64,000 nt of DNA from an uncultured Planctomycetaceae bacterium (GTDB lineage Bacteria; Planctomycetota; Planctomycetia; Planctomycetales; Planctomycetaceae). A program made the translations under genes and the position numbers. Below are positions 60,787 through 64,000 of this stretch, one piece after another. The notes beneath the pieces were generated by a model. The model ran no database searches. It was not told where the DNA came from and saw only the letters and a list, made by a program, of their open reading frames with translations. The DNA lies in NCBI GenBank assembly GCA_963815195.1, contig CAWFGE010000019.1, forward strand, positions 160,001-224,000, in the 5' to 3' direction. Position 1 is the stretch's first letter, and each line of letters opens with the position of its first letter.

Positions 60787-60879
60787 GGATTTTCAAACGC
60801 CGGCCTCTCAGAATAAAACAACAACGGCCAAATTGCGAATGTCCGCGTGAAACCTCTCCTGGAAACTTCCAAACGAACC

Positions 60880-61956
60880 ATGCCCCACACCAACACCACG
60901 ACCGTGATCATCGGCCAAGGCCTGGCGGGGACGGTCTTGGCCTGGCAGCTTCTGTGGCGGGGGGAATCGCTCGTGATGATTGACGACGGTTCCTTCCCCA
61001 CCGCGTCCCGGATCGCGGCCGGCCTGGTGACGCCCATCACCGGGCAGCGGCTCGTGCCCAGTTGGCGGTTCGCCGAGTTCTGGCCCGCCGCGCTAGGCTT
61101 TTATCGCCGGGTCGAGCAGGAAACCGGCCGATCGTTCTTCCGAGAAGTGCCGATGCTGCGGCTCTTCGGAAGCGAACAGGAACGCCTGCGGTTTTCGCAA
61201 TCACCATCCGCCGATTCCCCGGTTGCTGTCAAATATCCAGAACCACTCGTGGACGAGACCGCCTTCAAAAATGCATGGGGCGGATTTGAGATGCTCGGCG
61301 GACAGTTGGATGTCTGCGGGTTCCTGGAAACTTCGCGATCCTGGTTTGAAGACCGCGGGCTGTTGCGAACGAGTCGTGTCAATCTCCCCGCGGACCTGGA
61401 GTTGCAAATCGAATCCGTCGCCTTTTCCAAGTGGTACCTTGAAGCGAAGCGGGTGGTTTTTTGCGAAGGGTTTGCCGGTCGGAGAAATCCTTGGTTCCAG
61501 CGGGTGCCGTTTGATGCGGCCAAGGGGGAGATTCTGACGATCCGCGTGCCGGGCCTCGAGGAACAGCGGATCATCCACTGCGGGATTTGGCTGGCTCCGT
61601 TGGGAGAGGAACTGTTCCGCGCGGGAGCGACGTATGATCGGGAGAACCTGAACAACTTGCCCACAGAAAGCGGACGCGAGGAAATCTGCCGGCAGCTTCA
61701 AACCTTATTGCGATTGCCGTTTGAAGTCGTCGATCATCACGCGGCCGTGCGTCCCGTTGTGGTCGGCCGGCATCCGGTGATCGGATTGCATCCCCAATTT
61801 CCGCCGTTGGGTTATTGCAACGGCCTCGGTTCCAAAGGGGCACTCCAGGCTCCGTTCGTTGCGGAGCAGTTCGCGAGGTTTCTCCAAGGCGCGGGCGAGA
61901 TTGAAGACATCCTGAACCTCCGGCAGCGGTTTGGCGATATGTTATGGAACGATTGA
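60880..61956 (+). CDS. FAD-dependent oxidoreductase (DAO family; similar to the MnmC oxidase domain)
   Basis: IIGQGLAG, ASRIAAGL, VVFCEG, AKGEIL, GATY, AAVRP, NGLGSKG. Confidence 0.85.
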   Translation: MPHTNTTTVIIGQGLAGTVLAWQLLWRGESLVMIDDGSFPTASRIAAGLVTPITGQRLVPSWRFAEFWPAALGFYRRVEQETGRSFFREVPMLRLFGSEQERLRFSQSPSADSPVAVKYPEPLVDETAFKNAWGGFEMLGGQLDVCGFLETSRSWFEDRGLLRTSRVNLPADLELQIESVAFSKWYLEAKRVVFCEGFAGRRNPWFQRVPFDAAKGEILTIRVPGLEEQRIIHCGIWLAPLGEELFRAGATYDRENLNNLPTESGREEICRQLQTLLRLPFEVVDHHAAVRPVVVGRHPVIGLHPQFPPLGYCNGLGSKGALQAPFVAEQFARFLQGAGEIEDILNLRQRFGDMLWND

Positions 61957-62510
61957 CTGAGAAAGCCCATCAAATCGTGCGCTCTCGTGTGAGGCCGGGC
62001 GATGTGGCGATCGATGCCACCGCGGGGAACGGATACGACACCTTGTTCCTCAGCGAAGCCGTGGGAGACGCGGGGCTTGTGTTTGCCTTCGATGTGCAGC
62101 CGGCGGCTCTTGAGCAAACCGCCGCGCGGTTGGAAAATGCCGGCCGAAGCAACGTGCTGCTCGTGCCGCACAATCACGCGGAGTTGGCGAGTCACATCCC
62201 CGCCGAGCACCACGGCCAAATCGCCGCGGTGATGTTCAACCTGGGCTACTTGCCGGGATCCGACAAATCGTTCCACACGAAACCGGAAACCACAGGGTGG
62301 GCCATCCTGGGCGCGTTGCCTTGGCTCCGCGCGGACGGCGTTTTGACCGTGCTCGCCTACACGGGGCATCCCGGTGGGCTGGAGGAAGCCGCCGCCGTGC
62401 ACCAATTGCTGCAAAGCCTTTCTGGAGAGGAATTTACAGTCGAAACTCATGTCCCGGACCGGCCGTCGGCTCCACAACTGTTCGTGGTCGCCCGGCGGCA
62501 TAATCCGTAG
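61944..62510 (+). CDS. mnmM: Class I SAM methyltransferase, YtqB/MnmM-like (PF06962-type)
   Basis: GDVAIDATAGNGYDT, FAFDVQ, MFNLGYLPGSDK, AYTGHPGGLEE. Overlaps the upstream gene by 13 bp. Confidence 0.78.
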   Translation: MERLTEKAHQIVRSRVRPGDVAIDATAGNGYDTLFLSEAVGDAGLVFAFDVQPAALEQTAARLENAGRSNVLLVPHNHAELASHIPAEHHGQIAAVMFNLGYLPGSDKSFHTKPETTGWAILGALPWLRADGVLTVLAYTGHPGGLEEAAAVHQLLQSLSGEEFTVETHVPDRPSAPQLFVVARRHNP

Positions 62511-62639
62511 CGGATCGAGGATTTTCTTCCGAAAACGATGTTTCTCCGCGGTCGAAATCCTCGGAATTCGTATGATACAATGCATTGACCACGGAAGAAT
62601 TAAAAACTCAATAGTTCCAAATTACGGTAAAAAGGACCG

Positions 62640-62846
62640 AAGGTCCGGGCCTATGTCAGCCCAGGGCAAGCGCAGCGCCGCCCTGGGTTATGGATGATAA
62701 ATGAAACGCAAGCCCAGCGGGGCGGCCCTAGAGGGCACGCGCAGGGGCAGCTTCAATCCCACGCACGCATTACGTATCTTCGGTTTAGGACCGCCCCTTT
62801 GGGCCTATTGCATTTTGTTTGTTCCTGGTCCCCAGGGCTGCGCCCT
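62640..62846. repeat. Composite palindromic REP-like element interrupted by IS110 at CT 62845-62846
   Basis: Left hairpin AGCCCAGGGC...GCCCTGGGTT (62658-62689); inner imperfect inverted repeat 62712-62730 / 62786-62804; right hairpin CCCAGGGC-TGC-GCCCT, cut off before the expected GGG. Confidence 0.75.
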
Positions 62847-62859
62847 TATAGGATTTGCT

Positions 62860-63150
62860 GAGGGATGGATCGGCCGCGGGAGAGGGCGGGGGACGCAAGT
62901 CTCTCCCCACGGACTCTTCCGCGCCGGAGCCGATCCAGCGCCGTTTTTTTCCTGTTTTTCCAGCCCCAACTTTGAGAGGATCAAAATCAGGCACGCGTCG
63001 CCCCGCTACGAATCGTGCGCCCCATCGCTTCAACGATTGAGCCCAGACTTTCGAGCGGGACGATGCTCTTGGGAACCAACGAATCACTCCAGATGATGAC
63101 GCCAAAACGTCTCGGACTATAAGGTTTTCGCCCGCTCCCAAGATCGCGTG
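62860..63150 (+). ncRNA. Putative IS110 bridge RNA (5' stem-loop, target-binding loop, donor-binding loop)
   Basis: Hairpin 62866-62937. Target loop 62995-63066 with TGCGCCC (63016-63022) and AGCCCAG (63040-63046). Donor loop 63067-63143 with CTATAAG (63117-63123). TGCGCCC and CTATAAG match the junction; AGCCCAG matches the predicted right flank. RNA ends are approximate. Confidence 0.8.
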
Positions 63151-63192
63151 CCCTTTTTGATTGTGTTTCACTTTAACAGGAGACGATCCCCC

Positions 63193-64000
63193 ATGCACTC
63201 GAATTTGCTCGACCCCAATGCCTGTGTGCTGATCGGCCTCGATTGGGCCGACCGCGAACATGCCGTCTGCCGGCTGCTTCCCGACGGCGGAACCGAACAC
63301 CGGCAACTCGAACACACGCCCGAAGCGATTGCCGACTGGCTCGCCGGCCTGCGGAAGCAATTCCCCGGTCGCCCGATTCGGATCGCGTTGGAGCAAAGCT
63401 GCGGCGCGCTGATGAGCGCTCTGCCGTTTCGCCGACCTGGAACTCGAACTGTATCCCATCAATCCCAAGCAGCTGGCCCGCTATCGGGACGCGATTCATC
63501 CTTCGGGAGCGAAATCCGATCTAGACGATGCGCAGCTCTTGGCCCGCTTTCTGCAAAACCATCAGGAGCAACTCCTCCCGTTCGTGGCGGACGATCCCGA
63601 AACCCGCCGCCTGGCCGAGTTGTCCGAACTTCGCCGCAAGCTGGTCGATGACCGCAAAACCCTTGTGCAGAAGCTCGAAGGCACGCTCAAGCTGTATTTT
63701 CCGCAACTGCTCGAATGGTGTGCCGGGAAGAGTCGCCAACCCCTGTTGCTCGCCGTGCTTCGCCGCTGGCCGAGCTTGGGCGATCTTAAGCGGGCTCATC
63801 CCAAAACGCTTCGCACGTTCCTCGCCGAGCATGGCCTGCGGAACCCCGACCAGCAAACCGAGTGGATCGACAACGTCCGCCCCGCCACCCCGTTGACCGA
63901 GGATGCCAGTTTGATCGAACCCCGCGCGATGTACGCCCAAAGTCTCGGCCGGCAAATCGAGGAACTGAACGAGGCCATTGCCAAATTCGAGAAGCAACTG
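63193..64000 (+). CDS. IS110-family DEDD transposase/recombinase (partial; frameshift near 63430)
   Basis: AGGAG then ATG at 63193. IGLDWADREH (D), IALEQS (E), then in the shifted frame YPINPKQLARYR...GAKSDLDDA (D,D) and LRRKLVDDRK...LKLYFP. Confidence 0.92.

Follow-up and report, generated by a model that had tools for sequence, protein, structure and literature searches.

The window, a stretch of 64,000 nucleotides corresponding to G000:C19:160001-224000 (G000 being the genome that carries it), contains close to its right end a palindromic repeat interrupted by an insertion sequence of the IS110 group. To the left of the repeat, at 60847-62510, a DAO-family FAD oxidoreductase gene overlaps a PF06962 methyltransferase gene, a pairing that we take to resemble the split MnmC/MnmM pathway of tRNA wobble-uridine modification. 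The repeat and the element are laid out as follows.

62633..62730, + strand: left arm of the host repeat, with hairpins A, B and C in the layout found across the family
62634-62646, + strand: outer hairpin A of the left arm, followed by a spacer of about 10 nt
62658-62689, + strand: hairpin B of the left arm, with a long loop and a spacer after it
62712-62730, + strand: inner hairpin C of the left arm
62731..62785, no strand assigned: variable repeat centre, the position of a Y1 transposase gene of about 150 amino acids in relatives
62786..62846, + strand: right arm up to the insertion, with hairpin C at 62786-62804 and hairpin B at 62831-62846
62839..62846, + strand: left target (6 nt) and CT core, the CT at 62845-62846
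62847..64000, + strand: IS110 element of 1656 bp, extending beyond the window as far as G000:C19:224502 (window equivalent 64502)
63193..64000, + strand: IS110 recombinase gene, ending at window equivalent 64474; 427 amino acids in intact copies
G000:C19:224503-224532, outside the window: rest of the right arm (30 nt), beyond the element

The repeat is built of two palindromic units inverted around a variable spacer. Its inner inverted repeat (62712-62730 with 62786-62804) is 19 nt long and 84% complementary, and an intact 282-nt copy folds with a z-score of −11.6, a stability equalled by 0 of 200 shuffled sequences. The right hairpin B is stem P1 of Acido-Lenti-1, an Rfam family, and the element cuts its 3′ strand; the target and core occupy the 3′ strand of this 8-bp stem (z = −4.6). 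The element ends 502 bases beyond the window with CT at both junctions, and its first 30 nt have a G+C content of 53% compared with 62% for the host repeat.

An earlier note on this DNA had described a left hairpin, an inner inverted repeat and a right hairpin ending in CT, and all of these pieces were found, although the repeat begins at about 62633, slightly to the left of the 62640 it had given. From the symmetry of the repeat it had also predicted what lies beyond the element, and 15 of the 16 bases after the CT agree at the distal junction (G000:C19:224502, outside the window). Full symmetry did not hold: the loop of the left hairpin is longer, and sites of the left-arm type are never occupied (see below).

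Searching G000 by BLAST identified four further copies of the element, on contigs C18, C13 (two copies) and C15, giving five in total, and a search with PF02371 returned the same five and no additional IS110. All five share an identical left junction and identical first bases on the right, and CT flanks both ends in 5/5 copies; rejoining the flanks restores a free arm with the target otherwise unchanged. The two checks that the earlier note had proposed thus both came out in its favour in G000, 4/4 other copies having inserted at this CT of the repeat and uninterrupted repeats being present. The earlier note had supposed the landing site to be neutral; the five insertion sites lie between long open reading frames in codirectional, convergent and divergent arrangements, as judged from ORF lists with no gene caller.

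The recombinase is intact, at 427 amino acids, in the C18 copy and in the C13 copy at 491 kb. The intact C18 protein exceeds the cut-offs of both PF01548 (N-terminal DEDD domain) and PF02371 (C-terminal domain), the NF033542 model scores 171.9 bits against a cut-off of 140, and residues D17, E67, D110, D113 and S327 were assigned by motif and by alignment to chains of 8wt6 and 9t56. In the assembly, the window copy is frameshifted by 2 nt near 63415, the C15 copy carries one inserted nucleotide, and the second C13 copy has lost about 300 bp internally. Some of these indels may be assembly errors. Such errors are hinted at because an ORF adjoining the C18 copy (L002 3160-3937), which we take to be recA-like from its sequence, is broken across two frames. 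Contigs of two sequencing runs lack the window frameshift, and those contigs may collapse all copies. Contigs of four DNA runs contain neither a circle junction nor a joint that skips the element, which is uninformative either way. A 71-nt piece of genome G130 (L110, G130:C24:151874-151938) matches the left end of the element weakly, at 73%; it is possibly a remnant, and the recombinase search of G130 gave no match.

The repeat of about 230 bp is present at 57 loci in G000 (62 merged BLAST loci minus five distal stubs of interrupted copies), 35 of which are at least 170 bp long, including the five occupied ones. About ten copies are nested in a larger MITE-like unit of about 400 bp with terminal inverted repeats of about 17 bp (G000:C8:188.2-188.7 kb; C12:362.8, 707.1 and 852.8 kb; C19:112.7 kb; C22:6.7 kb; C18:85.5 kb; C13:490.7 kb; and about four partial copies). 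This unit itself adjoins CTAG-containing palindromes; for two of the IS110 copies this makes three levels of nesting.

Predicted bridge RNA and its guides

The left end of the element is non-coding over 346 nt, and its predicted fold comprises a stem-loop at the 5′ end and two stems that open into large internal loops. Folding of 62860-63190 gave a z-score of −3.15, with 0 of 100 shuffles as stable. The following parts could be assigned.

62849..62854, + strand: candidate −10 box of a putative promoter, its function suggested by analogy with IS621 (available part of PMC11208160)
62863..62936, + strand: 5′ stem-loop of the predicted bridge RNA, from the fold prediction
63001..63059, + strand: predicted target-binding loop, with an inner hairpin between the two guides
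63016-63022, + strand: putative left target guide, pairing 7/7 with the target through the C of the core
63040-63046, + strand: putative right target guide, pairing 7/7 with the target
63047-63048, + strand: putative handshake dinucleotide of the target loop
63071..63139, + strand: predicted donor-binding loop
63090-63097, + strand: putative left donor guide, with 6 matches, 1 mismatch and 1 wobble against the right end
63117-63123, + strand: putative right donor guide, pairing 7/7 with the core plus left end
63124-63125, + strand: putative handshake dinucleotide of the donor loop

The right target guide, AGCCCAG, is identical to 62658-62664 in the left arm, as the earlier note had pointed out. 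The left donor guide is imperfect beside the core, at a position that varies among relatives while the donor is nearly invariant. When the handshake rule described in the accessible part of PMC13626964 is applied, the handshake bases form no Watson–Crick pairs before strand exchange and three after it, and insertion would therefore be favoured. Only when the ends are joined as a circle would the candidate −10 box be preceded, at a distance of 17 nt, by a TTGAAA −35 box from the right end; of the 71 related loci with a parsed right end, 69 have a TTG 20-24 nt ahead of that end. An Rfam search of the element gave no bridge-RNA match.

Related elements provided a comparison of guides with flanks. 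The target loop could be parsed in 32 of the 88 loci examined, and four rows with duplicate guides, including the off-target copy in the congener G070 described below, were dropped. Left guides matched their own left flank at an average of 5.33 of 6 positions, compared with 3.43 when shuffled (n = 24), and right guides their own right flank at 3.73 of 5 compared with 1.97 (n = 26); in neither case did any of 10,000 shuffles reach the observed value, with the caveat that related loci are not independent, though their guides differ widely. The predicted guides can thus pair with both target and donor, and across relatives they vary together with the flanks.

From IS621 we infer that the element would excise as a circle, that its joined ends would create a sigma-70-type promoter, that a bridge RNA would be transcribed from the left end and that the recombinase would use the CT core to join the circle to its target. 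The guides would address a 13-bp site that in G000 is almost confined to the right arm (Acido-Lenti-1 stem P1).

Occupied and free target sites

The five occupied repeats are only 84.7-95.9% identical to one another, whereas the IS parts of the same copies are 99.6-100% identical, indicating that the five insertions were separate and recent. The alternative, in which the element inserted once and repeat and IS were then copied as a unit by mobility of the repeat or of the surrounding MITE, would fit the C18 copy and the C13 copy at 491 kb best, as these share the larger MITE-like unit and its outer flanks and have repeats that are 95.9% identical. Yet within this pair, too, there are 9 differences in the repeat but 1 in the 1659 positions of the IS, other pairs have 21-34 repeat differences against 0-6 in the IS, and guides track flanks across relatives. 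Copying of a repeat–IS composite was therefore rejected, the repeats being far more diverged than the IS copies, and we regard it as extremely unlikely.

The exact 13-mer target is occupied five times and free twice in the 8.9 Mb of G000, one free site lying in a truncated right arm and the other within a long ORF. Inside repeats, 5/6 exact sites are occupied as against 0/16 sites with one mismatch (13 with an intact core and 3 lacking the CT itself; Fisher p = 2.3e-4, a value that overstates the difference and serves as a guide at most, because there are just five events and the repeat copies are related). Sites that match the core and right target alone, of the four commonest types and with left-arm sequence, are occupied in 0/36 cases. 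Targeting in G000 is thus narrower than the repeat as a whole: exact sites are nearly filled and variants are free. The earlier note had proposed the multicopy repeat as a landing site for the element, and this much stood, but usable copies are restricted to the minority with the exact 13-mer; likewise, the uninterrupted 21-mer that it had named is present, but in its exact form just once in the genome, in a truncated right arm.

Among the free right arms, about ten lack hairpin B (for example C16:46123, C12:852922 and C18:197660), the hairpin having been lost through a short deletion between direct repeats, so that the IS target is removed. Other free right arms in G000 carry stem-preserving double changes.

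Together, these results make it highly probable, in our assessment, that a guided IS110 bridge-recombinase element has as its target the arm of a deleted Y1-element repeat, with its exact sites nearly filled. The IS110 would fill nearly every site that its guides match exactly and leave variants free.

The congener G070 carries an element with a recombinase 93% identical to that in G000 and with identical target guides, but the sole copy detected (L007, G070:C25, about 392.5 kb) lies in unrelated sequence. The left target is matched at 3/6 positions and the right target at 0/5, while two exact in-repeat sites are free in G070, which has 2 exact sites among 12 within three mismatches. The expectation that other copies would sit in the same repeat was therefore borne out in G000 and not in G070, and the G070 copy counts against strict targeting; G070 is a 50-contig assembly from which IS copies may have been lost. 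The right flank of this insertion fits the right arm of the donor at 4/5 bases, with the fifth a possible wobble. It is likely a natural donor-like insertion of the ‘RD-only half-match’ class, which was reported in vitro in 2026 (10.64898/2026.08.31.748434), as judged from the match of the flank.

Pairing may also be only part of what the element recognizes. Guide pairing would then be required and the target-containing hairpin would gate insertion as well, adding to guided targeting rather than replacing it. The location of target and core within the 3′ strand of the 8-bp stem points this way, as does the exact 13-mer outside a hairpin that is free at one site each in G000 and G070, and ISPpu10 offers a precedent (available portion of 10.64898/2026.03.19.712850). 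However, the free G000 site lies inside a long ORF, so selection is just as good an account of it. Among relatives, 41 empty sites were rebuilt, of which only 11 fold at z < −2 in a 40-nt window, and the G070 insertion site lacks a strong hairpin (z = −0.5). We hold such a dual match to be possible but less likely than not. As a requirement throughout the clade a hairpin is unsupported: it is common but not general, because just those 11 of 41 rebuilt sites fold strongly.

Identity of the host repeat

Each arm of the repeat contains an outer hairpin A, a hairpin B and an inner hairpin C, and in relatives of the family the arms enclose the gene of an IS200-like Y1 transposase of about 150 amino acids. 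Six repeat centres in G000 hold short pieces resembling the N or C terminus of this transposase (E 0.004-4.4, individually weak matches that were listed because they lie near repeats); no transposase remnant was detected in the centre of the window copy (62731..62785). The remnant is reversed relative to the arms at C19:127.8 kb, C10:261.4 kb and C7:224.9 kb, and the outer end types are exchanged in the window copy (62633-62657), G000:C16:46123 and C15:228324. Because outer ends are swapped in three copies and remnants inverted in three, inversions between the inverted repeats are suggested to have occurred.

Related Y1 transposases, also of about 150 amino acids, are found in many phyla, with both DH[IV]H and Y---Q--HH in 72/80 loci, and the partner transposase has an invariant WQ in 7/7 aligned sequences. 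The genes are flanked by inverted sequence at 48 of the 70 testable loci among these 80, compared with 4/60 for a distal control. Arms of the same architecture also surround Y1 transposase genes in records whose labels include Verrucomicrobia and Acidobacteria, among others, so the earlier description of a multicopy planctomycete repeat was right as to copy number and too narrow as to host.

Hairpin B, the spacer and hairpin A together constitute the Rfam family Acido-Lenti-1 (RF01687), whose model positions 1-46 are matched by the right arm; the gathering score is 37 bits over the whole model. G000 contains 46 hits, 25 of them over the cut-off. Nineteen lie in the host repeat family (5/19 over the cut-off), and most of the remainder belong to a sister repeat family with the same layout. 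The window copy, split by the IS110, scores 18 bits, and two copies in G070 with the exact target reach 39.4 and 39.3. Across the phylum, 14 of 61 genomes contain Acido-Lenti-1, frequently in inverted pairs. It lies beside 31/80 of the Y1 genes at E ≤ 0.05 and beside 12/80 at the gathering score, with 49/80 having no hit at E ≤ 0.05; 37/57 hits at Y1 genes fall within 150 bp, and 32 of these 37 point outward. In the sister family, the G000 copy at C23:554.7-555.2 kb (L262) has the three-hairpin layout and keeps only the 3′ half of the transposase gene, and at the same locus in G070 (L261, G070:C26) the gene is whole with Acido-Lenti-1 on both sides. An intact transposase with the host family's own arms was not found in G000 (94.6% complete), G070, G130 or G168, and the intact genes found in genomes of the genus carry other arm families.

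A classical RAYT partner was sought in G000 and rejected: PF01797 gave six hits, none near repeats and all at least 9 kb from any Acido-Lenti-1. With the RAYT model NF047646 the partner reaches 22 bits, far below the cut-off of 80, it has Y---Q--HH and not the class-2 Y---NP, and the terminal GTAG tag is absent from the repeat ends inspected. Because the class-2 RAYT and GTAG-tag tests fail, we do not class the repeat as a REPIN. From its arms and motifs it is probably a gene-less, internally deleted, non-autonomous form of a subclass-1.2-type Y1 element, REPIN-like in organization; the parent would carry a Y1 (HUH) transposase between inverted three-hairpin arms.

If the arm were instead a functional small RNA or regulatory hairpin, insertion would not be neutral and the free sites would reflect selection. 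Rfam types the entry as ‘Gene; sRNA’, Weinberg 2010 graded the motif as probably an RNA (PMC2864571, in the part available), and the stems show compensatory changes. Such changes suit a hairpin of single-stranded DNA equally well, however, and the motif is multicopy, often in inverted doublets, and points outward at both ends of Y1 transposase genes, while occupancy follows the guide match. We consider a functional RNA very unlikely, and favour the deleted Y1 element. In the titles, abstracts and passages covered, no paper connects Acido-Lenti-1 or subclass 1.2 with transposase ends or with targets of IS110; the supplements of Weinberg 2010 may bear on the matter.

The relatives of the IS110 element raise a broader reading, in which the clade is a specialized parasite re-aimed at A, B and C hairpins and at GTAG REPs, with the repeats escaping by mutation. 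Several of their targets are hairpins (A, B or C) in arms of the type seen in the host repeat, and many targets terminate in CTAC, which is complementary to the GTAG REP tag. Acido-Lenti-1 lies at or near the junctions in 4 of 20 relatives' loci, picked by eye. At L008, L010, L025, L026, L037, L041, L042 and L044, the insertion directly precedes the AC with which a hairpin ends, at GTAG-type REP ends. Double changes that preserve the stem, changes in the loop and loss of hairpin B would retain or abolish the fold but would in each case break the guide match, leaving just six usable arms in G000, five of them now filled. Re-aiming of the guides and the identity of the repeat are supported, in part by loci picked by eye; escape from targeting is unsupported, as G070 has similar variants but no on-target copy, and the combined reading seems to us unlikely. 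Were it true, an arms race of RNA guide against non-autonomous repeat would have left a natural record here, and an orphan Rfam ‘RNA’ would be settled as mobile DNA.

Comparison with known systems

Insertion of IS110 elements into REP-type palindromes is established for IS621, ISPpu10 and ISPpu9, the last of which, from Pseudomonas putida, reportedly uses such palindromes. The repeat in the window and the element within it, as first noticed in the earlier note, are real, and its interpretation of a repeat-targeting IS110 is supported. New here are a natural occupancy series of exact and mismatched sites and a target that would be the Acido-Lenti-1 arm of a gene-less Y1 element. G000 amounts to a natural test of bridge-RNA specificity, since exact, one-mismatch and half-match sites occur together and the exact ones alone are filled, and G070 adds an apparent natural ‘half-match’ insertion of the type reported in vitro in 2026. 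The element also adds an uncharacterized clade of 427-aa recombinases with a predicted 7-nt right guide, many naturally reprogrammed guides and two intact copies.

IS621 of Escherichia coli, a member of the IS110 group, uses a bridge RNA and inserts into REP sequences (PMC11208160, available in part). The present element resembles both IS621 (PDB 8wt6) and ISCro4 (PDB 9t56) in its DEDD and Transposase_20 domains and CT core, in a long non-coding left end with a predicted 5′ stem-loop and two guide loops, in a predicted handshake bias to insertion and in a palindromic extragenic repeat as target; the candidate circle-junction promoter would be a further parallel. The IS621 handshake moves from 1 to 3 Watson–Crick pairs (excerpt of PMC13626964). 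In contrast to the 328-341 residues of the IS621 and ISCro4 chains, the recombinase here has 427 and is only distantly similar (E 2e-7 and 2e-9). The native IS621 right target guide is 4 bp according to the accessible part of 10.64898/2026.08.31.748434, whereas the putative guide here pairs over 7 nt, and the target is an Acido-Lenti-1 arm and not an E. coli REP.

ISPpu10 of P. putida inserts at one CT of a multicopy intergenic REP and tolerates distal left-target mismatches in a reporter assay (both from the portion of 10.64898/2026.03.19.712850 available). Like ISPpu10 and ISPpu9, to the extent that these are described there, the element uses a single CT site of a multicopy intergenic repeat with a stem-loop overlapping the left target. 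Unlike with ISPpu10, the stem here spans the core and both target halves, and no site with a single left-target mismatch is occupied (0/13 with an intact core).

For the Y1 element, Quentin 2018 (PMC6006769) gives no REP for subclass 1.2 TnpA-Y1 and puts TIRYT examples in 2.1, 2.2 and 2.5. The partner transposase resembles subclass 1.2 as described there in being an HUH enzyme of about 150 amino acids with DH[IV]H, WQ and Y---Q--HH motifs. A low-copy gene, long inverted repeats and gene-less doublets are shared with TIRtrons/TIRYT (excerpt of PMC3733652) and with REPIN-RAYT or ‘IS200 group 3’ (excerpt of 10.1101/119735). Unlike REPIN-RAYT systems, the arms lack the terminal GTAG tag and the transposase falls far below the NF047646 cut-off. 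Acido-Lenti-1 itself, catalogued as a small RNA, appears here to form the terminus of a Y1-transposase element and to serve as an IS110 target.
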